Below are positions 24,393-58,685 of a stretch of 64,000 bases of DNA, piece by piece (position 1 is the stretch's first letter; each line of letters starts with the position of its first letter). This DNA is from Squalus acanthias. Its lineage: Eukaryota. The stretch lies in contig CM059432.1 in the NCBI GenBank assembly GCA_030390025.1, positions 53,446,001 through 53,510,000 of the forward strand, in the 5' to 3' direction. The notes beneath the pieces are model-generated. The model was not told the DNA's origin, made no database searches, and was given only the letters and a program-made list of their open reading frames with translations. The translations under genes and the position numbers were made by a program.

Positions 24393-26358
24393 GTGGAGGG
24401 AGCAAGAGCAAATAAGGAAGAGCTCTTTCCTTTCTCAGGGAGGAAAAAGCCTCCACAACAGACCAAAGCTGTGTGGCTGCAAGTGGCACAGGAGATGAAT
24501 GCGATATCAATGTGCAGCAGAACCTGGCTGCAGTGCAGAAGGAGGTTTCATGACCTTCTCCGCACAGGAAAAGTGAGTATTCCATCCCCATGACCCTCAA
24601 TCTGATCCCCATCGCCTCTCATCACCAGCACTCTGCTTTGTCAACCTCCTCCTCCACATCCCACTTCACCCTTACATCCCTGCACCCTTACCCATTCCCT
24701 CTCTCTGTATGTTCACATTCAATTAACTATTCGACTATGCAGCCCTCAAACTCCCTATCACTGTGATGCTATGACAACAACTTACAACACACAGGGAGGG
24801 CCCTTGGACTTGGCACCTCACTCCATCTTTGTGTCCTTCTAAGCATCCATGCTATGGATTCTCTACACTCACTCCTTCATTCTCACTCAAACTCCACTTG
24901 TGTACCTCATTGCAGGAAAGGAGAGCCCACAATAAGAGGGAGAGGGTGAGGACAGGAGGAGGGCTACCCTCAATAGCCTAGCTCACCGCTGCAGAGGAGG
25001 CGGCCCTGGAGATCGTGGGAGTGGAGGAGGATGCGCAAGTGGGGGACGGACAGACGGGCGCATCAGAGCAAGCTGGTGACAGAATAGTTTTTCATCTCTC
25101 TCATTGACATTGCATCAGTGACTGATATTGATTCTGACGCTCTAACAGATTGACTTATGATCATCTGCACAATTCAATGTGCATGCAACTTTTATTTCAC
25201 ATGTCTAACTCTTTCGTTTACTCCCCCACAGGACCATCGACAGCCCCCCTCCCCACTGTCCAGGAGGAACAGCCTGAGCGCCCAGACTCCTCAGAGGAAG
25301 CTGCAACCTCTGAGGGAGCAGTATCAGCAGAATTCAGTGCACCCAGCACAAGTGCAGACACTCACACCTCGGTGGGACCTTCGGGACATGGAGTAAAGTT
25401 GTCACCTGGTGTATCACTGCTCACAAGTGAGCATCAGCAGATGGTGCAGACAGGCACAGCAGTGGAGAGTCCTCGTCGGAGGCCACAGGACTCTCCCAGC
25501 TCGGCTCCGCTGCATGTTGACCCTGTGCCTCCGGGTCCATCCAGAAGGAGAGCAGTGCTCGAACTCCAGGAACAGGTGCAGGAGTTTCTGGCAGGTTTTG
25601 TCTCAGGGTTGCTGCGAGTGTGGAGCGAATGGAGGAGTCCATCGCGAACATGAGCAGGGCCTTTGTGGAGGCGTTGGCGCATGAACGCATCACCACGGAA
25701 AGGATGGCAACCTTCGTGAAAGGATGGCTACCTCCGTGGTAAGGCTGGCTACCATAGAGGAGAGGATGGCTACGGTAGAGGAGAGGATGGCTACGGTAGA
25801 GGAGAGGATGGCTACGGCCATGGAGGAGCTTAGTCACCAGGGTCTTGAAAACATGGTCATTGTTCAGAATAGAATGATGTCTCTTGAGGAGCGATGGTCA
25901 GCTATTGAGGAGAGAAACCAGAGCTTCATGGAAGTCCTCTGGAGTAGGACCTCCAGTGCAGAAACGGGTCCTCATGGTTCCCCTGAAGTGCAGCGAGGTG
26001 CTGTCAAGTCACTTGCTAGCTCTGAAGTGGGGCTGACCCATGAGAGGGATGTTGGTGGCAGAGAACCAGGAAGTGGGGGCTCCTCTCCAACGCTCACACG
26101 ACCAGGCCACTGCAGAGCCCTCGGTCAGAGCCCCACCAGAGTCCTCACCCAACTGAGATCGGCGTCTCAACCCCTGCACAGCCGCAGGAGCAGCAGACTG
26201 TGGCTGAGCCCTCACAGGCTCGCAACTCCAGAGGACGCCCGCCAAAGGTGCCGAGACAGGAGCAGCAAGAAAGTGAGCAAGGGGCCTCCACATCTGCTGA
26301 AGCCACAGGGGAAGCACCACGTAGGAGCACGCGTAAGAGGAAGATAAAGCACAAGTAG
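24393..26358 (+). pseudogene. Harbinger Myb/SANT(MADF)-like partner gene, exons ~24393-24572, 24916-25075, 25232-26358
   Basis: WLQVA...WLQCRRRFHDL trihelix motif, canonical GT-AG sites and ERMATVE heptad repeats; contains a stop and frameshifts. Confidence 0.75.
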
Positions 26359-26599
26359 TCACAAGTGTAGTCACTTGGGTGTTCTGTTGTGTTTATTTTT
26401 GAAATGCCATCCGTGAATTGTTGTGATAAAAAAATTTGATGGCTAACCATTGAAGTTGTGGCCTGTGTCATTTCGCAAATGAGACTTCCACATTGAGGGC
26501 TTAGGGCGACTTGCAATTGTCAGTATGGTGGTCAGATTGATAGGAATCCGCAGGTTCTTGGCCATTGTTGATGCTCTAGTAAGAAGGCAAAAGTGTTTG

Positions 26600-27864
26600 A
26601 TTGGGCAGGCTAAGCAAATTTGGCCAAGATGAGTGCGTCCCTTATATCCTTGATCCTTGGAGAAGTCAATGTGCTCGCGTGCTACTGCCGCTGGTTGATG
26701 CGCCTCCGCAAGCTGTTCGTTGTCGCTCTCCTCCTCCTCCTCCTCCTCATCTGAGGAGGCTATGCGATGAGCCACTTGTACCTCAGGCATCTGCAAGCCA
26801 TGATGCTGTGCCATTTTGTGAAGTGCACAGCAGACCACGACGATTCTGGAGACCTTGGCTGCTGAGTACTGCAGGGCTCCACCTGATCTATCAAGGCATC
26901 TGAATCGCATCTTCAGCAAGCCGATGGTTTATTCGATTATGGGTCTTTTGGAAATGTGGCTGGCGTTGTAGCGCTCCTCAGCTTCGTTGGATGGGCTCCT
27001 CAACGGCGTCATTAGCCACGTCTTCAGGGGCTAGCCCTTGTCTCCAAGTAGCCATCCGAAAAGCTGGTCTGGCAGACTGAAGAGCGGAGGCACACTAGAC
27101 TGCCGCAGGATGAAGGAGTCATGGCAACTGCCAGGGTACTTGGCGCAAACATGCAAAATTTCCTTCTTGTGGTCGCACACCAGCTGCACGTTGAGGGAGT
27201 GGAAGCCCTTGCGGTTGACAAAAATACCTGGATTGTGATGGGGTGCCTTAAGGGCCACATGTGTGCAGTCAATGATGCCCTGAACCCTTGGAAAGCCTGC
27301 CAGATTAGCAAATCCAATCGCACGTGCGGTTACACTTGCTTGATCCTTGGAGAAGTTAATGTAATTGTGCGCGATGGCAAAGAGGGCATCGGTTACCTGC
27401 GTGATACAAGTGTGTGCGGCCACCTGGGAGTCGCTGCTGATGTCTGCTGTTGTTCCCTGGGATGAGCCTGAAGCAAAAAAGTTGAGTGCGGTGGTGACTT
27501 TGACGGCCACTAGTAAGGGGTGTCCACCCGCTCCTCTGGGCTCCAGGTCTTGCTGCAGCATTGCGCAGATGTCAGCCATTACCTCTCGCGAAAGTCTGAG
27601 CCTCCTTTGGCACTGCTGCTCAGTCATGTTGAGATAGCTCATCCTCTGTTTGTAAAGCCTGTTTTGGGGGTATCTCCTGCGGCGACGTGCTTCCATGTGC
27701 TGGCACCTTCTGGCCTATGCAGCTTCAGGTGGGTGAGCAGCAGCTTGGCGCTCCTATTGTTGCTCCTGCTGTTGGTGCTGCTGTTGTTAAGGGTTCTGCT
27801 GCTGCCGCGTCTGGTCTTCGTCCGAATCTGATGTCCAGGAGGAAAGGAAATAAATGGTTCCCAT
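26600..27864 (-). pseudogene. Harbinger transposase, disrupted
   Basis: [18 protein letters not shown] and LLGDKG followed by a stop; frameshifts present. Confidence 0.85.
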
Positions 27865-28505
27865 GCTTCTGGTATATGCCTCAGTTGAGGAAGCGCTCAG
27901 TCAATGTGGGGAGAGGGGTTTCCCAGGAGGTCACACTGGAGATGGGTCTCAGGCTCCAAACTTCCACAACAATGAGTAGGCCTGCTAAAAGTTCCCCCAG
28001 ACCTGAGACAACAAAGTTCTGCCACCTGCAAATGATGATTGCTGAAAACTCTTTTTTAATGGTGGAGCTGCAGCTGTTAGTAAGCAATGCACTTGTGAGG
28101 CCGCCAGGATTAACTGGCGTGTTCCAGAGGAGACGTTCAGCACGGGGGAAATGTGTTAAATTCAGAAAGGCCTCTCAAAATGGGATTATGGAGGCACTTA
28201 GCTGGTTGTTAAGGGCCTTAAGGGCCTATCTCGCCTCTTGGAGGCGGGATGGAAACGGGGTCTGAAACCCCGATTTTGGGAAAATTGCTCGGAGGCGGGC
28301 TGGAGGTGTGATCGGATCCGCCCACCATTTTTTGCGATTTTAACACCTCACACGCCTCCAAACCCGCCTCCTCAGGCCTGGCAAAATCAAGCCCATTAAC
28401 TCCCTGCACCACCAGCGCATCGTGACTGCAGTATGTACCATCTACAAGATGCACTGCAGCAACTTGCCAAGGTTCCTTCGGCAGCACCTCCCAAACCCGC
28501 GACCT

Positions 28506-33577: not shown

Positions 33578-33875
33578 ACAACAACAACAACAACTTGTAT
33601 TTATACAGCACCTTTAATGTTGTAAAACGTCCCAAGGCGCTGCACAGGAGTGTTATAAGACAAAAAATTTTACACCGAGCCACACAAGGAGAAATTAGGG
33701 TAGGTGACCAAAAGCTTGGTCAAAGAGGTAGGTTTTAAGGAGCGTCTTAAAGGAGGAAAGAGAGGTAGTGAGGCGGAGAGGTTTAGGCAGGGAATTCCAG
33801 AGCTTAGGGCCGAGGCAACAGAAGGCACGGCCACCAATGGTTGAGCGATTATAATCAGGGATGCTCAAGAGGGCA
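33578..33875 (-). mobile_element. L2 LINE 3' end, target of the provirus
   Basis: (CAA)n tail on the + strand. The sequence continues seamlessly at 46699 (ATGCTCAAGAGGGCA|GAATTAGAGG). Confidence 0.8.
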
Positions 33876-35583
33876 TGTAAGGGATTCCCCTGACCCTGCG
33901 TGTCTCGTAGCCTGTGAGATTCACGCGGCTCTGTGCAGCCTGTATGTCAGTGCGGGTCTAGGCCTGGTTGCCTGTTCTGGTCTCCAGCCAGTCTGGGAAC
34001 ACTAGACACACCTGTGAGTGGTTCGAATCACTCTCCCTTACGGTTCTAGACACTGGACTTAGATGCGAGAGCAGTAATGGAGATAAAACTCATGTAGACT
34101 TGGTTTGAATGGTACGAAATGGAAAATCTTTATTGCATGATACTTAAAATTATGAAATACATGTCATAAGCACAGATTAATGACAGTACAATCTTACAAA
34201 CGGTTATATAATCGATCTTAGGGAAACGAGGAACGAACGGCACAACGTAAATAGGGGCACACATTACAAATATCCTTAATCTTTAAACCCTCCCCTATCA
34301 ATATCTATCCTAAACTAGCTTCGTAGGATCTCGAGACTCATGCTCACCACTCGTGATAACTCGGAGAAATTCCGAATAGCTGATCGGATGTTTTTCACCG
34401 CAGCACCCACGTGTCGGTCAGGAGATCTCCTGGTCCCACTTGTTTACTTGCTTCTGCTGCTCCGGCTAGTAGGCTGGACCGTCTGCTGTGGTGAAGACCT
34501 CTGTTGGTGGGTTTCACAGTTTAGTCTTGGAGCACCGTTGTCAATATCATTGATACGATGTGTTTTCCACGTTCCAACCTCCTTAGAAGTTTAAAGAGGA
34601 AAACTTCCTGGCGAGAAAACTTGGCTGATCGACCTACAGGCGCGGTCGGGATTTACTGACCGTGGCGATGGATATGGTCTTCTTCTCTTCTCCTCTCATC
34701 TCATCTCATCTCGGGCCTTTGGTTCCGCTGCCAGTTACCAACATAGGTCTTCGTTACGCGACACGAGGTAGATCCGTACGGATCAGAAAGTTCAACAGTC
34801 TTTTCAGAAGAGGCAACAGGCACGCAGAAACCCAACTACGAGTACACAGGAGCAGCCACGAGGTTACGAATCGACCAGATAAAACACAGGAGCAAGCGAG
34901 CGAACGCAGGAGCACGAACAAGAGCACGAGGCCAGAGGCAAGAGACAAGAGAGCGAATGGACGGTTCGGGGCCTGCAATTATAGTGCAAAAATCTTCCGT
35001 TTCCCGCCCAACTATAATGTCCATTCTTTTGTTTAGGGTTTGGCGCCCAAATGTCTTGTATGGGTGATCTCCGTTCTTAATGGGTTTCGGGCTACTCATG
35101 AATGTTTGAGTACCTGTTAATACTTCTCCCATTGTTAAATCGGTCGGTGTTCTCCCTGGAGGGGTTTGGGGCTTCCAAGTGTCCTGTATAACTACCTGCT
35201 AACGGCTCTCTCATCGTAGAGTCGTTGGGAGTTTACATATTAATGTCCTTTGGATGGGCCCTTGATTACTCGGTACAATGGCTTTCCTTTGTACCTGGGA
35301 GACCGATTCCAGTATCTATGTTTATACTGTAAACCCATAATGTCTCGTGTATTATCTTCACTGTGCTGAATCGTTATCGATCTTGCACAAATGTTTAATG
35401 GAACGCCATCTTGTCTGCCTGTTGAAAAGTCTAGAATGTTCTGTCACGAGGTGCGGCGGCCATTTTACAGGCTGCTTGTGTCCAATTTAAACCTGCCAGC
35501 ATTCTGCTGAAATAAAAGCTGTTTGAACGAAACTTTGTGTTTTCTCCTTATTAATCAAATCGCGATATATTGCGAATTCTACA
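33876..35583 (-). repeat. 3' LTR
   Basis: Direct repeat of 44987-46694 at offset 11111; three transitions found by eye. Confidence 0.97.
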
Positions 35584-35595
35584 GTCCCTCCTGTT
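35584..35595 (-). promoter_or_regulatory. Polypurine tract
   Basis: Minus strand AACAGGAGGGAC immediately before the 3' LTR TGTAG. Confidence 0.7.
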
Positions 35596-36009
35596 GATGC
35601 GAATAACTCCGCTTATCGTATCAAAAATCACAGTGGTGAGCAATCTTATCTCGATTTCACTCCGAATCCAGTAAATTAATCCCATAAATTTTAACTTAAC
35701 TAGGGTCTCTGTGTCGTCCTTATTTCCCAAGAAAATCACATTTTATATCACCGTAGGCATCATTTGCCCTTAAACTTACACCACTTGTTTTCCTTCCCGG
35801 CGTAACCAGGCCGATACCTCACGCATCACCTGTATATTTGTCTTTTATTCAGGGAAAGGAAAAAAAAACAAAACCCAAAACCAAACAATCAACACCATCA
35901 CCAAAATAAACAAATCCCAACTCTTAAACATGTCGAGTTTCCAACGTATTTACAATGAGTACAAACTTCCGCGGCGCACGCGGCGAGCGGGAGTGACGCC
36001 ATTTTCCGA

Positions 36010-38361
36010 TTACACGGTGCTCTCATCGTGCACGCGCACGTAACGTTCTCGCCACTCTCCCGTGTTTTCATGCTTGGTGAGGCACTTGTCTCTTTTACAA
36101 TGTATGACCAATAGGTACACTACAATAAACACTTGACAGACGACTAAAATGTGGGAGGCTATTCTGATCCATGAAGGCACTTCAATATTGGTGAACAGAT
36201 TCCACCACGGTGGAACCACTATGTCCAAAATGTCTGTTCCTATCTCGACAGTTTTCTGCTCTAACGTATAAAAATGTTTCTGTGATACCGCGACGGCTTT
36301 CAGAAGTTTGGTTAAATGCTCAGGGAGAGGGGGAATGAGGTATCCAAAATGTGCGACAAATCGCTGCAAGTCGGTGAAATTCTCTTTTACTGTGAGATGA
36401 ACAGTGGATGGTTCAGGGATTGGGATAATTCGCTGTTGTGCTACTTGAACTTCAGCCCTGGGTTTAAAACAGAAACTGCTGTCACTCACCGGACACCGGC
36501 TACGGTTTCCATGCTGGTAGTGTTGCGCTGCAGTGGTAACACAATATGTTCCACCCCCGATGTATGCTACCTGCGGAGGCACATGATCTTGTGCCATTGC
36601 CTCCATGGTGCAATTCATGGACTTGGCGCCAGCCGTTCTGAACCCGCACTGTGGTGTTAAAAAGGCATTCAAGTGCTGGGGGCACAGTATTATGTGTGCT
36701 CCCCTGCCACGACAACCAGAGAGATCTGTACCTGTCATCGTTTGCTCCCAGCGGATGACGTAAGGTGGAACCGCTGCATAACGAATGTGGGCTCCCCCCT
36801 GAATGACACCGATGTTCTCTACCCGATACACCGGGGCGGGCTTTGCTGTGTTGCCCAAAACCGGCATGCGTAATACTATTCCCATAATAGTATGGTTTGA
36901 ACGTCCGCAGTCCACGGGGACTGGGTAAGCTTCTGAAGCTAGCCTGAGCTGGCACGGACTTAATGCGTTCTGAAAAGGGTGGAGCGCCCGTAGGTGTTTG
37001 TTACTTATCCAGGACGGAACCAAACCTTGTTTTAAATCCTCCAAATTACTGCGGCCCTCGCCCAGTAACCACGCCCCGTAAAGCACGCACACCTCGTTCT
37101 GCGCAGCTTGATCGGATGCATTCCGATCTTCCCTGATCAGGGCATTTACCGTACGCGCATGTTTCTCCAGCTCTGCTATAATTTCCTTTAAATGGAGAGT
37201 CATGGCTTGGTCCTCGTGTAGACCTGACCCTACCACTTTATTCTCATCTGTTAGAATGTCTTTTAACTGGGTTTTTAAACCATTAATCTGGGTCTGCAGC
37301 TCCACACTGTCTAGAGCGTTGACCACAGATGTCCCTGTGTTAAAAGCAGTGAACGCATCGTTCACCAAACCCCTTCTTTGCCTCCCTACTTGATCCAAAA
37401 CTTCCTGCGGTGTGGTGTACAAACTTGCCTTATCAATTTCTGCAAAATCAAACTCGTAAAATTGTCTGAACATCTTGGTCAACAGGACCTGATACAACTG
37501 TTCCGTCTTTTTGGGGCACCACTCTGGTAACCGTACCTCAGTGAGATTTAAAATCACCGAGGCCACCGCGTAATGTACCCCCTGAAATAGTATCTGGTCT
37601 GTGGGGACCAGTACCAAACCGTTCCCGGGTCCCTTACTAGTTTTAGGGCACCCTTCTTCCTCAGCTAGAACCACCGGAATCGTGGGCGGGGCTTTGCGTG
37701 GGCGCGTAATGAGTTCAGTGGCATTTACTGGGATCGGGGAGAATGGGGCTCCGCACCCCCTGGTGCTCGCATCCCACCTCATCCCCTGTCCGTTATCCTG
37801 CCACTGATTAATAAAAAATATGGAGATGCCTTTGGGGCAAACGTACTTTGACCCCCACATACATACATAAATCCCCTCATCCGGTTCCCACCATTTGTCC
37901 CAACAGACTTTCACTTGTCCGTCTGTCCCCGTAATTGTCCGATGGGTATTATTACCCAGTCGTTCCCACTCGACCGAAGAGTTTCTCATAGTTTTGCTCA
38001 GCTTTCGCAGCCACCACCATCGGCTCAATGGGACATCCCCACTACAGGTCAAACAAATCCGTTTGCCGACGGTGACGCTGATCCTGGGTGCGATGATCCG
38101 TACTTTGGGGCACATTAAAGAAGTCTCTTTGTAGGCGAACCCCGATGTGCTGGAATACTCCGTTGAGTTCGTTCCCAGCCATCCTGGCCACCTTCCCTTG
38201 TGGAAATAGGTGCTGGTCCCCTCTGCCTTCCGTCTTCCGGTCCCATCCACCGCGATGGGGGCCGTGTCCCCGGAACATCCGAACACCACGACATCCTTGG
38301 TGTGGCCTCGATAGGCCAATCCACATCCGATTGCCACGAGCAATACTAGAATTCGTTCCAT
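36010..38361 (-). CDS. env: Envelope glycoprotein (783 aa): signal peptide, Ig-like domain, furin site, fusion peptide/heptad repeat, Cys-rich F1-like ectodomain, TM
   Basis: MERILVLLVAIGCGLA signal; RQRR|GLVNDAFTAF cleavage site (37372-37383); heptad repeat; C-terminal TM ILVVCQVFIVVYLLVI; intact ORF. Confidence 0.9.
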   Translation of the reverse strand: MERILVLLVAIGCGLAYRGHTKDVVVFGCSGDTAPIAVDGTGRRKAEGTSTYFHKGRWPGWLGTNSTEYSSTSGFAYKETSLMCPKVRIIAPRISVTVGKRICLTCSGDVPLSRWWWLRKLSKTMRNSSVEWERLGNNTHRTITGTDGQVKVCWDKWWEPDEGIYVCMWGSKYVCPKGISIFFINQWQDNGQGMRWDASTRGCGAPFSPIPVNATELITRPRKAPPTIPVVLAEEEGCPKTSKGPGNGLVLVPTDQILFQGVHYAVASVILNLTEVRLPEWCPKKTEQLYQVLLTKMFRQFYEFDFAEIDKASLYTTPQEVLDQVGRQRRGLVNDAFTAFNTGTSVVNALDSVELQTQINGLKTQLKDILTDENKVVGSGLHEDQAMTLHLKEIIAELEKHARTVNALIREDRNASDQAAQNEVCVLYGAWLLGEGRSNLEDLKQGLVPSWISNKHLRALHPFQNALSPCQLRLASEAYPVPVDCGRSNHTIMGIVLRMPVLGNTAKPAPVYRVENIGVIQGGAHIRYAAVPPYVIRWEQTMTGTDLSGCRGRGAHIILCPQHLNAFLTPQCGFRTAGAKSMNCTMEAMAQDHVPPQVAYIGGGTYCVTTAAQHYQHGNRSRCPVSDSSFCFKPRAEVQVAQQRIIPIPEPSTVHLTVKENFTDLQRFVAHFGYLIPPLPEHLTKLLKAVAVSQKHFYTLEQKTVEIGTDILDIVVPPWWNLFTNIEVPSWIRIASHILVVCQVFIVVYLLVIHCKRDKCLTKHENTGEWRERYVRVHDESTV

Positions 38362-38374
38362 CCTTCCTTGGTTC

Positions 38375-38394
38375 CTGTGATCAGATAGAATGAG
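38375..38394 (-). promoter_or_regulatory. Putative env splice acceptor
   Basis: Minus strand CTCATTCTATCTGATCACAG|G, 13 nt upstream of the signal-peptide ATG. Confidence 0.6.
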
Positions 38395-38647
38395 GTAGCC
38401 AGCCTCGCAAAAGTCTCTGGCTTTTGTGAAGGGTGAGCGGGTCCCCTGACCTCGCCTCACGTAAACTTCAACGTTTGCTGAATAGACTTCCTCTAAACCT
38501 AGCCTTAAAACTCCCATCATTTTATCGTTTTCTGTTAAAAACACTACAAACTTAGCCTTATTAAAACTACAAACTTAACCTTGAACTATAAACTTAAAAC
38601 CTTAACCTAATAACTTTACAGTGCCGCCCGTTCTCAGGGCGGCCCCT

Positions 38648-41600
38648 TTAAATTCTGAGAAGGCTGCTGCGAGCTCTTCCCGACGGTGGGAGGGCACTGA
38701 CCCTTCCCTCTGATCTGCCGCAGCCTGTTGCTGCGCTGACCCTTTCCTCTGATCTGCCGCAGCCTGTTACTGCTGCGATGTGGCCTGTCTCTACCCGGGT
38801 TATCTTAACCTGAATTTTACGCCTTGGGGCTGTCTGGGGACATGACCACATCCTCCTGGGCTGGGGTTCTCTACTAGACCTACGGGGAGTTGCTATGGGC
38901 GGGGGTTCCGTGACGGACGGACCGGGTTCCGAGACCTCCAACGGGATGACCTGGGGTTCCATCACAGTCGCCGGCTCCGCCTCCGCTGACTCCGCCTCCC
39001 TAACCTCGGGGCTGGTAGTTCGTGGCTCCGCCCTGCTCGGCCCAGCAGGCGGCCCTTCACTCGTGATCTCTGCCTCCCCTGAGGACTGGACGTTCAAAGC
39101 GGGCGGCCACATCTCTGGGAACCACATTGGTACTCTCTGTGCTCCTATAGCGGCTGGCCCTGCCTCCTCTAGCTCCTCCCTCCTGTCCTCGGGACCTGCA
39201 GCTTGTGTGTCCACCCCGTGTGGATCTCTACCTATCGGCCCCATTCCCCCCAGACCGTTCCTCAGGAACCACCCGTCATCATCACTATGCTCATCTGCAC
39301 TATCCTCAACTGACCAGGGTACCCTGGGTTCTTCGTCATCTAACCCCCAACTCCAGAAAAACGCTGCATGATCGTCCGGGATGTCCCTTCCCCTGATGCA
39401 AGCTGCTACGCCTGCCTGTGTGCCTTGTGGTCCTACCTGGGGCTGTGTTTTCCCATTGGCGGGATTTACCCCTGTAGTTTTCCCCTGCGCACCCGGCTGG
39501 TACAGTTTGCATTGGTTTATGTGGAACCACTTAGTGCGCCGAGGCACTTTTACGGCGTAAACCATGGGACTCGCCTTGTCTACAATGTTGTAGGGTCCCA
39601 TATACAGTGGTTCCAGACTCCCTACTCTGGCGTAGTTTCTGACCATGACCTGGTCTCCTACTTCCCACTCCCGCGTTTTGCGGGGTTCCAGCAACAAGCG
39701 ATTGCCCTGATGCTGCCTTCCCATGTTCCCAGCCGCCTGCTCATAAACTTGCTTCAGGCGCTCCAAGAGATTTTGGGCGAACTTGTCCCTGCTGATCTCT
39801 TGAAGCTGACCCTCAGTGAGCACCGGGGCTAGCACATGGGTGGGGGTTCGCATGAGCCTGCCGGTCATTACCTCGTGCGGGGAGTACCCCGTACTTTTTG
39901 ACTGACTGGCCCGGACCCCCATGAGGACTAAAGGCAGAACTTCCGCCCATTTTTGGGGCGAGTTCCTAGTCTCTTTCCTCAATTTCTCCTTCAGGGTCCG
40001 GTTCATACGTTCAACAATCCCGGATGACTGGGGATTGTGCGCTACGTGCCACTTCCCTTCAATGCCCAAAAGCATGAGGGTGTTCTGCATCACCTGGCCG
40101 GTGAAATGACTCCCTTGGTCTGACTCCACGAAACGGGGGAGTCCCCACCGCGAGAACACTTCCCGGACCAAGATTTTTGCTGTACCCAGTGCCGTAGCGG
40201 TTCGACAAGGGAAGGCTTCCACCCACTTGGAAAACACATCTACCAGGACGAGGCAGTATTTATAACCTCCCTGGGTGGTGGGCAGGGGTCCTATATAGTC
40301 GATCTGTATCGACTGCCATGGTCCCTCTACCCTTCTTACGTGTCCCATGGGCACCTTCCTTTTCTGGGGGTCTGGGTTGTTTGCAGCGCACACAAGACAG
40401 TTTGCACAGAACTCGCGGACTTGTTCCCTGAGCCCCGGCCACCATCCCGCTTGCTCTACCCGTTGCCAGGCAACCTCGGGCCCGGGGTGCCCTGCCCCTG
40501 GTCCCTCGTGAGCCAACTGGAGGAATTCCCTCCTGTGCTGCTGCGGCACAACCCACTGCTCCCCGCGGAACAGCATGCCTTCCTTAACTGAGAGGGTTGC
40601 CGTACTGTACGGACCTTCTACCTGCCTCCCCTCAGCAATCGTTTTTAGGACTGCTTTTAGGGCGGGATCCTGGGCTTGGACGGTCTTAAGGTCTAGGGGC
40701 AATGCTACCCTGGTGTTCCCGGTATTCCCGTCCCCGCCTCGGACCGCTGCTATGGGTCCGGTCCTATAGGGGTTCCAGAAAGTGCCGTCGCGGGCACCCT
40801 CCCTGGCTAGCGCATCCGCCTGCCGGTTGCCCTCCCCACGGGGCTCTGTGGAGGAGTGAGCTTTCACCTTATGGATGAAAATCTCCCCTTCCTCCCCTAC
40901 TGCTGCTGCTAAGATCTTTTCCAGCAAGGGCTTCACCGTTAAAGGTCGCCCGTCCGCGGAGGTGTATCCGCGGCGGGACCAAATGGCCAGGTATTCCGTA
41001 CACGAATTGCAGGTGAACATACTGTCCGAGCAAATCGTGTATGGGGTTGGGAAAATGTCTGGGTGGGTCACCACGTACACCACGGCAGACAGCTCAGCCT
41101 GCTGCGCGCTCATGGTGCTAGGGAGCTTGATCGCCAGGGCAAGGTCTGCCGCAGGGTCATAAACTCCACACCCTGTGAGTCGCTCGCCAGCAGACACTGT
41201 GCTAGACCCATCAACATAAATCTCGCGCCCAGTGGGATGTATCCCGGCCCGTAAACCTATGTTGACGTCCCACACCCCTTCCACCGAACACCGGTGGGCT
41301 GTACCGGGGTATACCAAATTGGCCGCAAGCCTGGGCTCGCAAAGACCTTTTACTCTAAGATCCAACTGGGAGAGAAGAAGGGTCCAACGCGCAATGCGTG
41401 CGCTGCTTACGGTCCCGTCTTTAATCCTCCCATCCAGAAGCATCTTAGTTGGTGTGTGATGTGTGAGGAGAGTGATGGGAGAGAGCCCTGTGAAGATCGC
41501 TGATCTTTTCACAGCCCAATGCGTGGCTAAAAGGTGCCTTTCGCAATTGGAGAAACTTCTCTCCACATCCGTTAATACCCTGGATGAATAGACAACCGGC

Positions 41601-43171
41601 CTCAGCTTGCCGTGACGCTCTTGGAGCAGCACGGCGCTTAAGCTGTCTCCGCTGGCAGCTACCTCCAGGAAAAACTCCTTCCCCCCATCTATGGCCCCTA
41701 AGGCTGGCACGGTCTGCAGATCCCTTTTTAACTTCTCGAAGGCTGCTTGGCAGCCCTCGTCCCAAAGCCACTCCGCCCCCTTATGGAGGAGTCGGAGGAG
41801 CGGCGCCGCTGTGGCCGCATAATCTTCGATAAAATCCCTGCAGTAACCGGTCAGTCCCAAGAAGGACCTCACACCCCTTACGTTGTTGGGAATCGGTAAT
41901 TCTTGCACCGACTCCCTCCTTGCTTTGTCTATGGCTCTTTCCCCAGCGCGTAGGGTCAGTCCCAGGAATTTTACTTCCTGCTGACCGATACGTGCTTTCT
42001 TTGGGTTTACTTTGAAACCCTTTCTCGCTAACAGCTCCAATAACTCGTCCAGTAGTGGTCCATGCTCCTCCCTTGAGTCCGTAAATAGGAGCAAATCATC
42101 CACATACTGTACTATCTGATTGGGCTGACTAAACTCCTTTAAACTTCCTGCCATACACTGATGAAAAATACTGGGGCTATTGTGGAAACCCTGTGGCAAA
42201 CAGTTCCACGTGTACTGTTGCCCTTTAAACGTAAAGGCAAACTTGTACTGGTCCTCTCGCCGCAGCGGGATGGACCAAAAACCGTTCGAGATATCCAGCA
42301 CCGTGAACGTGGTCGCGGACGCTGGGATGCTCCCTATTAGGTCAGCAACTGCTGCTACTGTGGGCGCGCAGGCGGGAATGTTACTGTTAAGGACTCTGTA
42401 GTCCACCGTGGCTCTCCACGAATTATCCGGCTTCCTAACCGGCCATAATGGGGAGTTCACGTGTGTGGCTATCGGCCTCAACACGCCCTGCTGCACCAAG
42501 GAAGACATTGCTGTCTCCATATCGGGTTCGGCTTCTTTGGGGAAGTTATACTGCTTTTGGGGTCGGGTCATGGGGTCCCCATCTACGCTGACCTCAAACC
42601 CGACCACCCTCCCACAATCGTGCTTGTGGGTTGCAAACGCGTGCATATTATCTGACACGTACGTTTGCATGTCCGTTGGGACATCTGCGACCATAAGCCT
42701 GAGGTCGTAGCCTCCGGATGGCTGTACGGTACACAGGACCCCTGTTTCTTCCTCCCCCGGAATCACCATTACCTCGCCTTTTTCACCCTTAGCCCCCCAG
42801 AGACAGTGATTTCTGAGGTCCACGAGGATCCCGTGTCCCGCTAGGAGATCGGACCCGAGAATACCTCTTCCACCCCCCTTTTGCCATGCCATCAGTATAC
42901 ACTTCCACTTAAGGCGAAGTGTTCCTAAACGAATGGATAGCGGGAGGGAAAACGTGCCAGCCTGTTCTTTCCCTGTGAACCCTGCCAGCGTGAATGGGAC
43001 CTTGGTAGATAGCGGCGAGTCAAAAGGGTTATCCGTATGGATTATGGTGCAAGAAGCTCCCGTGTCCAACAAATAACTGCCCTTCTGTTTCTCTACCTCC
43101 ATCTCCACCACAGGTCGCCTCCACGCATCATAGCTGAGCGGACACAGGTAGACGGGCTGTGCTGGTTCTAG
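38648..43171 (-). CDS. pol: Pol: protease, RT, tether RNase H, RNase H, integrase (HHCC, DDE, GPY/F) and C-terminal extension
   Basis: LLDTGAS; LPQG...YVDD; YVDGS/AEL/SDS/GNRQAD; H-H-C-C zinc finger, IDYIG, SDQG, VERMN, GPY. Intact frame continuous with the gag stop. Confidence 0.95.
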   Translation of the reverse strand, partial: LEPAQPVYLCPLSYDAWRRPVVEMEVEKQKGSYLLDTGASCTIIHTDNPFDSPLSTKVPFTLAGFTGKEQAGTFSLPLSIRLGTLRLKWKCILMAWQKGGGRGILGSDLLAGHGILVDLRNHCLWGAKGEKGEVMVIPGEEETGVLCTVQPSGGYDLRLMVADVPTDMQTYVSDNMHAFATHKHDCGRVVGFEVSVDGDPMTRPQKQYNFPKEAEPDMETAMSSLVQQGVLRPIATHVNSPLWPVRKPDNSWRATVDYRVLNSNIPACAPTVAAVADLIGSIPASATTFTVLDISNGFWSIPLRREDQYKFAFTFKGQQYTWNCLPQGFHNSPSIFHQCMAGSLKEFSQPNQIVQYVDDLLLFTDSREEHGPLLDELLELLARKGFKVNPKKARIGQQEVKFLGLTLRAGERAIDKARRESVQELPIPNNVRGVRSFLGLTGYCRDFIEDYAATAAPLLRLLHKGAEWLWDEGCQAAFEKLKRDLQTVPALGAIDGGKEFFLEVAASGDSLSAVLLQERHGKLRPVVYSSRVLTDVERSFSNCERHLLATHWAVKRSAIFTGLSPITLLTHHTPTKMLLDGRIKDGTVSSARIARWTLLLSQLDLRVKGLCEPRLAANLVYPGTAHRCSVEGVWDVNIGLRAGIHPTGREIYVDGSSTVSAGERLTGCGVYDPAADLALAIKLPSTMSAQQAELSAVVYVVTHPDIFPTPYTICSDSMFTCNSCTEYLAIWSRRGYTSADGRPLTVKPLLEKILAAAVGEEGEIFIHKVKAHSSTEPRGEGNRQADALAREGARDGTFWNPYRTGPIAAVRGGDGNTGNTRVALPLDLKTVQAQDPALKAVLKTIAEGRQVEGPYSTATLSVKEGMLFRGEQWVVPQQHRREFLQLAHEGPGAGHPGPEVAWQRVEQAGWWPGLREQVREFCANCLVCAANNPDPQKRKVPMGHVRRVEGPWQSIQIDYIGPLPTTQGGYKYCLVLVDVFSKWVEAFPCRTATALGTAKILVREVFSRWGLPRFVESDQGSHFTGQVMQNTLMLLGIEGKWHVAHNPQSSGIVERMNRTLKEKLRKETRNSPQKWAEVLPLVLMGVRASQSKSTGYSPHEVMTGRLMRTPTHVLAPVLTEGQLQEISRDKFAQNLLERLKQVYEQAAGNMGRQHQGNRLLLEPRKTREWEVGDQVMVRNYARVGSLEPLYMGPYNIVDKASPMVYAVKVPRRTKWFHINQCKLYQPGAQGKTTGVNPANGKTQPQVGPQGTQAGVAACIRGRDIPDDHAAFFWSWGLDDEEPRVPWSVEDSADEHSDDDGWFLRNGLGGMGPIGRDPHGVDTQAAGPEDRREELEEAGPAAIGAQRVPMWFPEMWPPALNVQSSGEAEITSEGPPAGPSRAEPRTTSPEVREAESAEAEPATVMEPQVIPLEVSEPGPSVTEPPPIATPRRSSREPQPRRMWSCPQTAPRRKIQVKITRVETGHIAAVTGCGRSEERVSAATGCGRSEGRVSALPPSGRARSSLLRI

Positions 43172-44982
43172 TCATGGGGCACTATTAGACGGTCCTGCGG
43201 CACCTACGGGGCCGGTTGCGACCGCCACCTGTCCACGCGCATTCAAAACCATCTTGCGCATGGCTCCTAACACTGCTTCGAGGTCGTCGGGAGGGGTGGG
43301 TGCCTTTGCTTCCTTAGGCGGGACAGGCGCCTGGGCTCGGACCGCGGGATTTTTATCCTTGGAATCCTTCCAAGGGTTCCTGCAGTGCTTGCGCCAGTGC
43401 CCTGTCTTCCCACACCCGTAACAGGCATTACTTGCCTGTGGGGCGCGATTACCCTCCTGATGCCACTCTCTTTGAGCCGGGGCTGCGGGTCGTACCTCAT
43501 GTACTCTTCCCTTAAAGGGACGTGTCGTCATACCCCTTATGTTACGATAACCTAACGTGAGTCGATTCAAGACCGACTCTTCCGTAAGGTTGAGGTCATT
43601 GGGATCGAACCAGGCTTTTGCCTGCTCTCTAACGGCTGGTAAACTGTTGGCTATTATGCACCTAAGCCAATGAATTAGAGCGGCGCCTTCCACATCTTCG
43701 CGCTCGGGCGCACCTAGACAGCTGCGCTCATATACTGGCCACAGCCTGTCGGCAAAAACCTTCGGGGGTTCTCCCTCCATCTGCACTGTCTGTCCCACTC
43801 TAGCAAACGGACCTCCGTCGTTCGCCCCCACTACTTCGAGGACCTCATTTTTCAATTCCTCATAACTTTTGTTTCCCCTCTTGCTCTCGCCTGAGAGACA
43901 CTGAAGGACCGAGCTATCTAACGAGAACAGCAGCATTTTTGCTGTCTCCCCATCATCGCAGCCGTTAATGGCTGCGGCTTGCTCAACTTCCCTGAAATGT
44001 ACGGAAGGGTCGTCTATCTCGGTCAGCTTCCTTACGTGGTTTATCATAGCTCTCAGCTGATGTGAACTGTGAGGCAACACCAGCTGTCCGAGGAGATCCC
44101 CCGGTTCTTCCCCACCGTTTCTGCTTGGGCCCCTTTTAATCCCCGTTACTGGATACAACGATCCCTTTTCTACCTCCTTTTTAATGGGCTCTTTTGTTTC
44201 TTCCGTTGCTTCCTCCCTAACCCAGGTTTCTGAATAGCTGGGTGGCGCGGAGGGCGCAGTGGCTACTACTTCTTCTGCTTTACTTGGTGGGGAATTTCTA
44301 AATCTCTCATTTACTAGCGGCTGGTGCGCCGACGGATTGATAAGGCACACCATGCCGTTCGCATTATTCACGGCCTTTTTGAGGCTCTCTATCTCCCTTT
44401 GGCAGGCGCTATGGTCGGCTCCCTGAAACTTATCCTCAAGGGCCAACTTATACGCCGACCTAACCCCCATTAAGCTCTCTTCTTGAGTTCTTATCTGGGC
44501 AGCTTGGCGGTTACATCTTTCCTTTAACCTACTCTCATTCAATTTTGCTTCAGTGACCTGGCACTCGAGATACTCTATCCTTGTTTTAAGGTAACTGGAG
44601 ACTTCCTGGCTTTCCTGGTGTAACTCATTTAAATTCTTAATGAGCACCTCCCCTCAGAAACCTTCTCCTCCATTTCTCCCTCTAAATGGCTGACACGAGC
44701 TGTTAGCGCTGTAATGGTCTGGTTTGAAATCTGAACCTGCCTTTTGTAGCACATAAGCCAGACTGCTTTCTCAACTGCCTTTTTATGTTCCTTACTATCA
44801 GTCCACCTTTCAGCTGCCTCTAGTGGGCTCTTATCCGCTAACAATTCACTTATCCACTTCTTAGTTAGATTAACCTTTCCAAACACATAATCCGCTATCT
44901 TTTCCTGCATAACATTTCGTACAGTCATTCCAAAATCTAACACACTACCCTCTCGCTGCCAGTGTCCTGCCGCGGTCGCCAT
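43172..44982 (-). CDS. gag: Gag with N-terminal coiled coil, PSAPPSY late domain and one CCHC zinc knuckle; single 1-nt frameshift at ~44650
   Basis: ORFs 44629-44982 and 43172-44647; CYGCGKTGHWRKHC at 43382-43423; homology to the gag at 13665. Confidence 0.9.
44964..44981 (-). promoter_or_regulatory. Primer-binding site, tRNA-Arg(TCG) type
   Basis: TGGCGACCGCGGCAGGAC is complementary to the vertebrate tRNA-Arg(TCG) 3' end GTCCTGCCGCGGTCG-CCA, as I recall that sequence. Confidence 0.85.
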
Positions 44983-44986
44983 TTTC

Positions 44987-46694
44987 TGTAAGGGATTCCC
45001 CTGACCCTGCGTGTCTCGTAGCCTGTGAGATTCACGCGGCTCTGTGCAGCCTGTATGTCAGTGCGGGTCTAGGCCTGGTTGCCTGTTCTGGTCTCCAGCC
45101 AGTCTGGGAACACTAGACACACCTGTGAGTGGTTCGAATCACTCTCCCTTACGGTTCTAGACACTGGACTTAGATGCGAGAGCAGTAATGGAGATAAAAC
45201 TCATGTAGACTTGGTTTGAATGGTACGAAATGGAAAATCTTTATTGCATGATACTTAAAATTATGAAATACATGTCATAAGCACAGATTAATGACAGTAC
45301 AATCTTACAAACGGTTATATAATCGATCTTAGGGAAACGAGGAACGAACGGCACAACGTAAATAGGGGCACACATTACAAATATCCTTAATCTTTAAACC
45401 CTCCCCTATCAATATCTATCCTAAACTAGCTTCGTAGGATCTCGAGACTCATGCTCACCACTCGTGATAACTCGGAGAAATTCCGAATAGCTGATCGGAT
45501 GTTTTTCACCGCAGCACCCACGTGTCGGTCAGGAGATCTCCTGGTCCCACTTGTTTACTTGCTTCTGCTGCTCCGGCTAGTAGGCTGGACCGTCTGCTGT
45601 GGTGAAGACCTCTGTTGGTGGGTTTCACAGTTTAGTCTTGGAGCACCGTTGTCAATATCATTGATACGATGTGTTTTCCACGTTCCAACCTCCTTAGAAG
45701 TTTAAAGAGGAAAACTTCCTGGCGAGAAAACTTGGCTGATCGACCTACAGGCGCGGTCGGGATTTACTGACCGTGGCGATGGATATGGTCTTCTTCTCTT
45801 CTCCTCTCATCTCATCTCATCTCGGGCCTTTGGTTCCGCTGCCAGTTACCAACATAGGTCTTCGTTACGCGACACGAGGTAGATCCGTACGGATCAGAAA
45901 GTTCAACAGTCTTTTCAGAAGAGGCAACAGGCACGCAGAAACCCAACTACGAGTACACAGGAGCAGCTACGAGGTTACGAATCGACCGGATAAAACACAG
46001 GAGCAAGCGAGCGAACGCAGGAGCACGAACAAGAGCACGAGGCCAGAGGCAAGAGACAAGAGAGCGAATGGACGGTTCGGGGCCTGCAATTATAGTGCAA
46101 AAATCTTCCGTTTCCCGCCCAACTATAATGTCCATTCTTTTGTTTAGGGTTTGGCGCCCAAATGTCTTGTATGGGTGATCTCCGTTCTTAATGGGTTTCG
46201 GGCTACTCATGAATGTTTGAGTACCTGTTAATACTTCTCCCATTGTTAAATCGGTCGGTGTTCTCCCTGGAGGGGTTTGGGGCTTCCAAGTGTCCTGTAT
46301 AACTACCTGCTAACGGCTCTCTCATCGTAGAGTCGTTGGGAGTTTACATATTAATGTCCTTTGGATGGGCCCTTGATTACTCGGTACAATGGCTTTCCTT
46401 TGTACCTGGGAGACCGATTCCAGTATCTATGTTTATACTGTAAACCCATAATGTCTCGTGTATTATCCTCACTGTGCTGAATCGTTATCGATCTTGCACA
46501 AATGTTTAATGGAACGCCATCTTGTCTGCCTGTTGAAAAGTCTAGAATGTTCTGTCACGAGGTGCGGCGGCCATTTTACAGGCTGCTTGTGTCCAATTTA
46601 AACCTGCCAGCATTCTGCTGAAATAAAAGCTGTTTGAACGAAACTTTGTGTTTTCTCCTTATTAATCAAATCGCGATATATTGCGAATTCTACA
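44987..46694 (-). repeat. 5' LTR (TATA ~46094-46089, splice donor 45458, AATAAA 45245-45240)
   Basis: Direct repeat of 33876-35583; TGTAG...TTACA termini on the minus strand. Confidence 0.97.
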
Positions 46695-47235
46695 GGCAGA
46701 ATTAGAGGAGCGCAGATATCTCGGGGGATTGTGGGGCTGAAGGAGATTAAAGAGATAGGAAGGGGCGAGGCCATGGAGGGATTTGAAAACAAGGATGAGA
46801 ATTTTGAAATCGAGGCGCTACTTAACCGGGAGCCAATGTAGGTCAGCGAGCACAGGAGTGATGGGTGAACGGGACTTGGTGTGAGTTAGGACATGGGCAG
46901 CCAAGTTTTGGATGACCTCAAGTTTATGTAGGGTAGAATGTGAGAGGCCAGCCAGGAGTGCATTGAAATAGTCAAGTCTAGAGGTAACAAAGGCATGGAT
47001 GAGGGTTTCAGCAGCGGATGAGCTGAGGCAAGGGCGGAGATGGGCGATGTTACGGTGGTGGAAATAGGCGGTCTTTGTTATGCTGCGGATATCTGGTCGG
47101 TAGCTCATCTCAGGGTTAAATATGACACCAAGTTTGTGAACAGTATGGTTCAGCCTCAGACAGATGTTAGGGAGAGGGATGGAGTCAGAGGCTAGGGAAT
47201 GGAGTTTGTGCCGGGGATCAAAAACAATAGCTTTG

Positions 47236-54549: not shown

Positions 54550-57215
54550 GAGCTGCCACTCACTCTAAGGATATCTGCATGCTTTCTATGCCATGTCACC
54601 AGCACCTCACGATGTGGACTCCTCCTCTACATTTGTCACCATGGTGCAGAATCTGCTGGGCACATCATACAATGACTGCGACAGTCTATCATGCTCTGAA
54701 AGCATTCTTTTGAATGCTGGGCCATTTAGATTTGGGTCCACTGCCTCCTCTTCTTCTACCTCCTGTCCTTCCTGTTTCTGCTCTCCCATGGTCAGTGATT
54801 TCACCTCAGTGGTCCCCCTATACTCTCAATCTATATCCCACTGAGTGGATGAAATTGGACTGATGCATGCCAAGTCTTGTGATGGCATACCTGATAAGGT
54901 GCTTCTTGTAGGTTCCATGGAGGATGTGATCTCTGATTTATCTGCCATTTCTGTGCATACATATAAAGGGACAATCATTAATAGTTAAGTGAATGTGTAC
55001 TCCTGGCTTCATGTCACTGTCATCATCACAGGAAGGTCCCGAAAGTTGAGATTTTGAAACACGTTGACCGGAATAGAGAGGGAGGAAAGGAATAGAGCAA
55101 TGAACTGTCAGTGGGAACATACCCACCTGCTTCACAACCACTTGCCACCTCTCTCAAACAGTGTCACTTCCTGAAATGTAACAAATCCTGCTCCAATAGC
55201 TGTGGCCTGAATTCTGTTAAATGCCTCCTTCTCCTGCAGAGATTTATCAGACACCCATGATTTCTGCAGCATCATGACCCCTACAAAATTAGCAGTGCAT
55301 TTCCCCTTTCCATTCCAAAGTAGTTGGATTTACTGTGAAGATGCTGTGTTAGGTGCTGCAAATGTCACATTGCTCACCCAGGCTCAGGCGTCCCTGTTCC
55401 CTCTGCAGATTCTCCCACAGCCCCAAGTTGCTCAAACCATCTTAAGCAGCCATAGGTCTTCAAGACCTACAGGAGCCCATCAATGTCTTGTGTCTACATG
55501 ACTACTAACCAAAGGATGCTTTAGTGCTCACTCGTGTACTATCCACAACAAGCAAATTAGCCCTAAGAGGAAATTAGGATGTAGAAAAATGACTTCAGGT
55601 TCAGCGCTTTTCCAGTGTGCTGCCCATGGACCCCAGAAAAATTAGTCTTTCATTCTTTAGGGTTGATGGGCATTCCACCTCTCCTCCCGAATAATGCCCC
55701 AGAAAATTCTGATTTTTGATATTTCATTTGGTGCATTTTCTGACATTTTATGGACTGTGATTCTGCCTTTCAATTCCTGGAAGGGTTACAAGTACTTTAA
55801 AAATTAGAATGATAGTGCTTGGAAAGATTTCAATTCAACTTTAACAGGGTCCAGTTCCTTTCTTTGGGAATCTAATGCAAACTATGAACTGAAGCTTTTT
55901 ACACCAGCACCCCCTTCAACAATTCCAATCAGCAGTGCATTCTACACTCACAAGACAAAACTGGCTATCACATCTACCCCTGTCCCAGACCCCGTGGCAG
56001 TCCAGAGACAGGTGGGGCCCTACCCGGATCTCTGATTTAAACAAACAGCTTTTATTTTAAAGTAGCTTTAGGGGTGATAAAGGTGAATCAATAAATATCA
56101 TTGAAGCAAAATCTTAGAACTGAGTTCCGATAAAGATTCACACTCAAATATTTGCTTGTCTTAGATGTTGATCAAATGCAATGCATTTCAAATACTTTCT
56201 GATTTTAAAACCAAAATAGACAGGAGGCTGGAATTTAGTGCTAACGGTAAGAGCAAGTACTAAACGTATTTGTAGGACATACTGCTATTTTAATAACAGA
56301 GCGTTTCATGATTCACTATTCAAAATAAATGGCCAATCTGATTGGTTCTGACAACCTCCAGCATTGCCCTCCAACTGATCTGGTTGGTTAACTACTACCA
56401 ATCCCAGTGAAAGCCACTTTGATGAAGTATGAAGTAGGAATAAGGTATAAGGTTGAGTACAGCTGTGGAATCATACTCCAGTATTATTCACTCTCTTCAG
56501 CTGAAAAACAACAATACCTTGCACTTGTATAGCACTCCTCACATGGAGAACAAATTTTTAGAACATCAAACAGGAGAGAAAAGAGAACAACAGGGTTTGG
56601 CACGGTCAAAGAAAAGGGCTTTAATAGAGGCTTTTCAAAGCAGGGTGGAAGGTGACAAGGCAATGAGATTTTGGAAGAGAGTTCCAGAGGACAGAGACAT
56701 AGGCCTGCGATTTTATCGGCACTGAGAGGGCGGGTTTGGAGGCGGGTCAAGGGTCAAAATCGTTTTGATTGACGGCGGGTTGCGATCCCGCAGGCAACAC
56801 GCCTCCACACCACCCGATCGGTCCCGCCACCAAGCGGTGGGAGAGGTTCTTGAGGCAGTTAACAGCTTGTTAACTGCCTGGATAAGCTTATTTTAACAGA
56901 GATTTCCGATTTTATAACATTTTCTGCATGTTCCAGGCCGTTCCCAAACCATGTCAGCTGATTGTGCCGGGTTCAGCAAGTGCCTGCCTTCTTGACAGCT
57001 GCAGCTCCAGCATAAAAACAGAGCTCTAACATGGCTGACTTACAGATGACAGAATTTTGTTTTTGCAGGTCTTGGAAAACTTTTTGCAGGTCTACTGATC
57101 TTGTAAGTGATGAAGCTGAGATCCATCTCCACTGTGACCTCCTGGGAAAACCCTCTCCCCACATTGACTGAGCGCTTATAACTTCTATTCCTCAACTGAC
57201 ATAGCTACCAGCAGC

Positions 57216-58409: not shown

Positions 58410-58685
58410 GTAGACGAATCAAACACATGTGGCTGGCACCTTCTTATCACACCATACACAATGTACAAGAACCTGTGGGTTCCTATCACTCTCACCACCA
58501 TCATTACAAATGCAAGTCACCCTGAGCCCTCAATGTGCAACTTCCATTTCCCAGAACACAGAGGCCAGACCTTCAACTGTTTGCCATCACTTTTGTTTTA
58601 AACATGCACCAAAAGGATGCCAATGCCAAATATTAAACACAACAAAAGACAACAGAACAGAACACCCAAGTGACTACCCTTGAGA

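Follow-up and report, generated by a model that had tools for sequence, protein, structure and literature searches.

A 64-kb stretch of the Squalus acanthias genome (assembly GCA_030390025.1, contig CM059432.1), hereafter the window, to whose positions all coordinates refer, carries on its minus strand a near-intact provirus, which an initial annotation had taken for a very young lokiretrovirus-like element. Here, I describe its structure, the placement of its reverse transcriptase (RT) and the fold of its envelope protein (Env). In the direction of transcription, the features of the provirus and its long terminal repeats (LTRs) are:

33876..46694, minus strand: provirus, near-intact
46695..46698, no strand: target-site duplication GGCA on the element's 5' side
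44987..46694, minus strand: 5' LTR, 1708 bp, with TG...CA ends
44964..44981, minus strand: primer-binding site, 5 nt past the LTR, TGGCGACCGCGGCAGGAC
44629..44982, minus strand: 5' part of gag, from the first ATG (44982), within an open frame at 44629-45057
43172..44653, minus strand: 3' part of gag, with a coiled coil, a capsid-sized middle and one CCHC zinc knuckle
43168..43174, minus strand: gag stop TGA followed by CTAG, in frame with pol
38648..43171, minus strand: pol, one open frame of 1507 codons (protease, RT, tether, RNase H, integrase)
36010..38361, minus strand: env, 783 aa from the Met at 38361, within an open frame at 36010-38574
35584..35595, minus strand: weak polypurine tract candidate, a short purine-rich tract adjoining the 3' LTR
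33876..35583, minus strand: 3' LTR, 1708 bp
33872..33875, no strand: target-site duplication GGCA on the element's 3' side

As the initial annotation had claimed, pol and env are each a single open frame. No clear accessory open reading frame (ORF) was found in the provirus. The order within pol is protease, RT, tether (a degenerate RNase H), second RNase H, integrase with a GPY motif and a long low-complexity tail. The catalytic motifs of protease, RT and RNase H are intact, as is the DDE triad of the integrase (D-59-D-35-E); the HH pair of the integrase was missed by the motif pattern, but its zinc-binding domain was detected by Pfam, and the tether and the second RNase H are recognised as PF17919/PF17917 followed by PF00075. 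The tail (38648-39450, minus strand) extends some 270 residues past the integrase, is acidic and proline-rich, and contains a 39-bp tandem duplication (38694-38771).

Placement of the reverse transcriptase

A search with Pol returned 112 relatives, 111 of them with enough cover. The best match is 86% identical and is followed, at 37-43%, by 'NYNRIN-like' proteins of frogs, turtle, coelacanth and ostrich. The RT tree has 53 rows, namely the RT of the window and 52 relatives out of those 111, of which 24 are retrovirus-like and 28 are Gypsy-like, the latter picked by hand; a tree of RT plus tether has 47. Reference labels follow the supplementary RT alignments of PMC7947760. The lokiretrovirus (Loki) group consists of P0019 and P0020, whose motif was found 21 times in that supplement, with Loki-like RTs in all 16 occurrences shown. 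Three further candidates for Loki rows (P0016-P0018) proved to be bird sequences, probably Ovex1-like, whose RT site is degenerate, and were left out of the later Loki tests. The row for snakehead retrovirus (SnRV) is P0023, which is 99.4% identical to the Pol of a 10,688-nt viral contig (L001), itself identified as SnRV by a match, by eye, to the published SnRV RT.

In the RT tree the element lies within a 23-row clade of SnRV, epsilon/gamma-like and class III-like sequences at 100/99, the class III-like neighbours being endogenous retroviruses (ERVs) of frogs, coelacanth, turtle and birds, and both Loki rows fall outside. The same grouping is obtained with RT plus tether, with a support of 99 in the Shimodaira-Hasegawa-like approximate likelihood ratio test. 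In likelihood mapping the quartets joining the element to canonical retroviruses numbered 85/88, 871/880 and 438/440 for RT and 86/88, 876/880 and 431/440 for RT plus tether (96.6-99.6%); those joining it to Loki numbered 0, 0 and 1 with either data set. The element is split from the 28 Gypsy-like rows at 100/100, has two RNase H domains where Ty3/Gypsy elements have one, and stands outside the five-row epsilon/gamma-like (class I) clade (99/94; rows assigned by motif and Pfam).

Identities and motifs point the same way. The RT is 50-54% identical to P0005-P0008 (including three frog ERVs at 50-52%), 43% to SnRV and 34-36% to Loki. Before YxDD it reads LPQGFHNSP, with the canonical LPQGF; in the Loki RTs viewed in the PMC7947760 supplement, that of the basal eel element among them, the motif is PFGY (PFGY.NSPAEFNIF, on my own reading of the alignment). 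A 10-residue motif of the window RT occurs three times in that supplement, each time in SnRV. Sequence scores against the PDB are 240 bits for murine leukaemia virus, 220 for foamy virus and 147 for Ty3. The RNase H tree, poorly resolved overall, parts the element from Loki at 98.

These sequence comparisons place the RT within canonical retroviruses, in the neighbourhood of SnRV and the class III ERVs, and not with lokiretroviruses. The lokiretroviral identity proposed at first is thus not supported: the RT phylogeny that the initial annotation had itself suggested as a check finds the RT essentially nested in canonical retroviruses. Since the position within the canonical clade is an open fork, the label 'SnRV-like/class III' relies on motifs, RT identity and anatomy, with an RT that lies among canonical retroviruses and outside the gamma/epsilon-like groups.

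An F-type envelope

The predicted Env has a hydrophobic N-terminus, a Pro/Thr linker, a core of the fusion protein (F) type from aa 236, heptad repeats, 10 N-glycosylation sequons, a predicted RQRR cleavage site at aa 327-330 and a transmembrane anchor near aa 734-753. No CX6CC motif, the mark of gamma-type Envs, was found in it. Its similarity to F was detected neither by Pfam (no PF00523 match) nor by sequence searches of the PDB, and became apparent from a structure model, made by aligning 44 sequences from a deep search that gave 50 relatives and folding the result. With this model, all 39 rows shown by Foldseek against the PDB are paramyxovirus or pneumovirus F proteins, the best being F of respiratory syncytial virus (E 8e-11) and of human parainfluenza virus 3 (1e-10). 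The top 12 matches of VIA-align include F proteins and foamy virus Env at Z 7.3-11.0: Newcastle disease virus F reaches Z 11.0 (root mean square deviation 18.5, 359 residues aligned) and foamy Env 8.2 (5.3, 265 aligned), with a range of 8.2-8.8 for the foamy structures 8RM0/8RM1. As modelled, the Env of the element is F-like, a relationship to which the sequence libraries are blind.

In a library of viral structures, Envs of walleye epsilonretroviruses rank second and seventh (walleye epidermal hyperplasia virus 1, WEHV1, E 1.8e-14; walleye dermal sarcoma virus, WDSV, 2.1e-12), and feline foamy virus Env ranks 47th. Predicted walleye Envs (Q9WHI8, A4GTG3) match the F-type model; in the excerpts of a review they are called only 'distinct' from the gamma type (PMC9967133). 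An F-like Env has been described in foamy viruses (PMC11468914). SnRV is linked by sequence: against the profile of this Env family, its Env gives 94.9% in hhalign (E 4.4e-8, 337 columns) and 27.1 bits in hmmsearch, the best of 200 shuffles reaching 3.4. A single-sequence fold of the SnRV Env core gave no confident model (mean predicted local distance difference test, pLDDT, 36.6). The F-type Env is thus common to Loki, foamy, walleye-epsilon and SnRV-type viruses. A literature search found no description of an F-type Env in SnRV-like ERVs, most subscription papers lying outside its coverage.

It follows that the pairing of two RNase H domains with an Env resembling the F proteins of Mononegavirales, correctly recognised at first, is no mark of Loki: the Env is shared with SnRV, walleye and foamy viruses, and every retrovirus has the two RNase H domains (PMC7947760).

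The F core follows an N-terminal part of about 230 residues, in which an Ig-like domain is probable, at about aa 95-190 of the model. Beta strands are predicted at aa 102-169 with low confidence, with weak sandwich matches (Z 5.3-6.2); the Pfam families Ig_3 and V-set each match one of the 44 Env members, and UniRef names one relative (P0127) 'Ig-like domain-containing'. Such a head may serve as a receptor binder.

LTRs, integration and age

The two LTRs align without gaps and differ at exactly three positions (34857/45968, 34877/45988 and 35357/46468), all transitions, just as the initial annotation had listed them. With a TATA-like box at LTR position 1374 and AATAAA at 1450, U3 would span a long ~1.4 kb and R-U5 ~300 nt. 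A 98-aa ORF starting with ATG lies in U3 of both LTRs (34836-35132 and 45947-46243, minus strand), possibly an accessory gene or a product of chance.

The GGCA duplication is present on both sides, as first reported. The target repeat occurs uninterrupted, with a single GGCA, in contigs of two public sequencing runs (X10 and X14), which may represent other copies of the repeat; a duplication of 4 bp is thereby supported. Multicopy repeats flank the element on both sides, and a spanning contig is absent among the contigs listed.

The Kimura two-parameter distance between the LTRs is 0.0018 (0.18% divergence). This corresponds to 0.4 Myr (Poisson range 0.08-1.2) at the mammalian rate used in PMC7947760, and to 4.0 Myr (0.8-11.7) if, as PMC4422223 assumes, the rate in sharks is ten times slower. 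The provirus is hence recent and near-intact, as had been claimed, and 'very young' is valid solely in the sense of 0.4-4 Myr, depending on the rate.

gag, primer site and gag-pol junction

The gag gene is split over two frames by a single break within a 25-nt overlap (44629-44654). Both parts are spanned in one frame by a skate relative (P0116), by P0117 and by a decayed gag in the same window (13596-14642), and so this is one gene with a break rather than two genes. The break had been ascribed to a homopolymer indel: it is indeed single and at a short single-base run, yet no run of six or more lies there. No family was matched by the capsid-sized middle region.

The copy as assembled cannot make full Gag or Gag-Pol. 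At the break, part of the contigs in all four public runs examined differ in length from the window (36-78% of summed depth), so that the break is not family-wide. That it is an assembly error and that all frames are open at the locus is therefore a possibility, though the odds lean against it: these contigs pool many copies of the family and are not tied to the locus, and the family has other one-base length variants in env and pol.

The primer-binding site, which I take to be of the tRNA-Arg (SnRV) type, is identical to that of SnRV at 13 of 18 positions; the 64-kb window holds no tRNA gene for comparison. The first gag ATG overlaps this site, and the products of the window gag, the skate relative and the decayed copy (near 13665) all begin MAT....WQ; the N-terminus of P0117 differs. 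If the overlapping ATG is used, gag would follow the primer site without a leader, and any packaging signals would have to reside in R-U5 or within gag. At the other end, the gag stop is UGA-CUAG in the RNA, a leaky-stop context known from other systems. No stable hairpin was found 3' of it (z +0.66).

Relatives and spread of the family

Names were looked up for 23 of the 50 Env relatives and obtained for 21: 16 elasmobranch, three frog, one coelacanth and one eel. The elasmobranchs are Rhinoraja, Pristiophorus, Mustelus, Chiloscyllium, Heterodontus, Scyliorhinus and Rhincodon; all named matches above 30% identity belong to them, with skate and sawshark at 72-75%. Judged from these Env relatives, the chondrichthyan host first proposed is supported indirectly, an elasmobranch being very probable. 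The ESM Atlas gave for Env only a chordate cluster, at 0.84; among candidate contigs, none of 44 from metagenomes and one of nine from viruses proved to be a relative.

Parts of the window occur in 20 public runs, labelled with five coded organisms. None of the runs listed is recorded as RNA; X14, which covers all 30 bins, may be RNA. The four runs examined by contigs each cover 30/30 bins with hundreds of variant sites, and pieces from organism C are 94-100% alike; run depth is not a copy number. This indicates that the family is large and varied and is present in at least two of the labelled organisms.

Some observations concern other members of the family. A cluster from Mantella aurantiaca (P0162) has 16 members, mostly full-length 677-aa Env relatives on many chromosomes, in keeping with a young expansion in this frog. 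Pieces of the Env family are fused into shark gene models (P0002, P0003, P0125 and P0154; Niban-like, zinc-finger, cadherin-related and fbxo15), by exonisation or as annotation artefacts. P0205 and P0206 represent a duck-type, probably Ovex1-like, Pol in a Priestia megaterium record, probably contamination. Within the window, a second, decayed element of the same lineage lies on the plus strand (13300-14810): it combines a remnant resembling an LTR, AATAAA included, with a degenerate primer site (near 13665) and a gag 44-52% identical to that of the main element, the match stopping near 14810, where Harbinger-like sequence begins.

The surroundings contain Harbinger transposons and long interspersed nuclear elements (LINEs), and no host gene was recognised. 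The ESM Atlas places a flanking Harbinger transposase at 'Chordata' or wider, which does not narrow down the host. Two inverted Harbinger copies (24447-28249 and 56822-60534), 80% alike over 3.9 kb, contain transposase and Myb/SANT ORFs, and further Harbinger transposases lie at 1085-2505 and 16028-17422.

Comparison with known systems

With SnRV the element shares RT motifs, gag and pol in frame across one stop, a coiled-coil Gag with one CCHC knuckle, and a homologous long Env with an F-type core and an N-terminal extension. It differs in the stop itself (TAG in SnRV, TGA-CTAG here), in the start of gag, which in SnRV lies ~250 nt past the primer site, and in its Env, of 783 aa with its own hydrophobic N-terminus as against a 1134-codon env frame in SnRV; nor are the two sisters in the trees. 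SnRV reportedly has a leader exon and accessory genes.

All vertebrate groups harbour SnRV-related ERVs (PMC6001957), and the SnRV-like/class III ERVs ('clade Huo' of that paper), with which the element shares its part of the RT tree, are known from cartilaginous fish. A case in point is CmiERV lineage I of the elephant shark (PMC4422223), compared here through its description, whose LTR divergence is 3.3% as against 0.18%. Along the same line, chicken Ovex1 combines a coiled-coil Gag with in-frame gag-pol (PMC2717909).

Lokiretroviruses share the LTR-gag-pol-env layout, tether plus RNase H, coiled-coil sequence near gag, and an F-like Env with a basic (RXKR-type) cleavage site, coiled coil and transmembrane segment (PMC7947760, PMC9040795). 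They differ in RT clade and motifs and lack the ~230 additional N-terminal residues of this Env. The coiled coil belongs to Gag in the relatives of the element; some Loki elements have a separate 'smc'-like gene. The comparison with Loki, foamy and ERV-L sequences from the literature relied on visual inspection and motif search.

Foamy viruses and the walleye epsilonretroviruses share the F-type fusion core; the epsilon/gamma-like RT rows, as seen above, form a clade without the element. Foamy Gag lacks a zinc knuckle and foamy Pol is made from spliced RNA; the zinc knuckle and in-frame gag-pol of the element argue against membership in Spumaretrovirinae.

Weighing the explanations

The best explanation, with a probability of about 0.85, is that the provirus stems from a canonical retrovirus of the SnRV-related, class III type ('clade Huo'), that it is one copy of a large and varied elasmobranch family and that it was inserted recently in an abundant LINE-like repeat.

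Several results weigh against it. Approximately unbiased (AU) tests fail to reject a tree joining the element to Loki (p 0.101 and 0.113); only two Loki rows, both teleost-type, are in the trees, and foamy, ERV-L, class II and Odin RTs are absent from them. Inside the canonical clade the element sits in an unresolved fork and is not the sister of SnRV, which groups with the epsilon/gamma-like rows (89/93 in the RT tree, 98 with the tether); the integrase tree, without a CGIN1 row, is unresolved as well and leaves the element in an open fork. Gag resembles its SnRV counterpart weakly, with a composition-biased score of 14.5 bits where the best shuffle reaches 7.1, and BLASTP between the two matched the zinc knuckle alone. 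The Env model has a mean pLDDT of 62.9, with 40-64 in the Ig-like part, and no joint splicing env is among the contig joints listed.

That the shark and ray family, perhaps together with the 'NYNRIN-like' ERVs of frogs and coelacanth, forms a deep canonical lineage of its own, branching close to the root of Retroviridae and only loosely 'SnRV-like', is unlikely, yet it is the placement that fares best among the alternatives. The element has a long stem (0.55-0.58) in the open basal fork of canonical retroviruses, and its nearest named RTs are just 50-52% identical. The gag start at the primer site and the signal-like N-terminus of Env itself are both unlike SnRV, and the tether is nearer Loki (39-40% identity) than SnRV, which is absent among the best 26 rows. 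Surveys, however, already place fish, amphibian and reptile ERVs in a broad SnRV-related clade that extends to all vertebrate groups (PMC6001957, PMC4977317), and the choice between the two may therefore be a matter of naming.

A recombinant, in which gag-pol of class III had acquired its env from a lokiretrovirus or from some other carrier of F, is improbable. Env and Pol trees do often conflict in ERVs of anamniotes (bioRxiv 2021.11.23.469661); here, the relatives of Env and of Pol share host groups (frogs, coelacanth) and the Env of SnRV is homologous, which indicates long co-inheritance, and among the 23 of 50 Env matches named or viewed none is Loki-like by eye.

A true lokiretrovirus, which would be the first in cartilaginous fish given that a 2020 screen scored none of six chondrichthyan genomes, is very improbable: its dual RNase H, its F-like Env with an RxxR site and a core colinear by eye with published Loki Env, a coiled-coil region resembling some Loki 'smc' and the non-significant AU tests are outweighed by the RT trees and quartets, by LPQGF against PFGY, by the RNase H split, by the wide sharing of the F-type Env and by Loki Envs having the F core right behind the signal peptide, where the element and SnRV have a long N-terminal extension.

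Proposed life cycle

For the canonical, SnRV-related provirus preferred here, transcription would begin in the 5' LTR, and Gag would be translated from the AUG at or just past the primer site, with Gag-Pol arising when ribosomes read through the in-frame UGA-CUAG stop. A tRNA, presumably tRNA-Arg, would prime reverse transcription, and the integrase would create the 4-bp duplication. Env would come from a spliced mRNA and be cut by furin at RQRR; it may then bind cells via its Ig-like head and fuse membranes in the manner of paramyxovirus F. For this copy, expression of Env and packaging by other members of the family would still be possible.

Meaning for retroviral evolution

The element is not the first shark lokiretrovirus, and the 2020 screen is left unchanged by it; more generally, 'dual RNase H plus F-like env' is unusable for calling Loki elements. 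SnRV-related class III-type ERVs being already known in cartilaginous fish, this is a further young member, and the noteworthy part is its F-type, Ig-headed Env.

Wang and Han report no significant overall similarity between Loki and retroviral Envs and leave four origins open (PMC7947760). Through the profile of the present Env family, SnRV Env joins the F-type group on sequence grounds, and structural matches to the model bring in walleye and foamy Env; the question of an ancestral Env thereby becomes testable. I tentatively suggest, at somewhat less than even odds, that the ancestral envelope of retroviruses was the F-type fusion protein. SnRV and the canonical retroviruses related to it in sharks, rays, frogs, coelacanth and eel would carry Ig-headed F-type Envs; together with the Envs of foamy, walleye-epsilon and Loki viruses, the fold would then be present on all deep branches, and gamma- and beta-type Envs would be later replacements (scenarios 1 or 3 of PMC7947760). 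Under the same proposal, the young shark family, with a gag that starts in the primer site, would be the best-preserved case and may still spread.

A copy with 0.18% LTR divergence and open pol and env points to recent retroviral activity in elasmobranchs.

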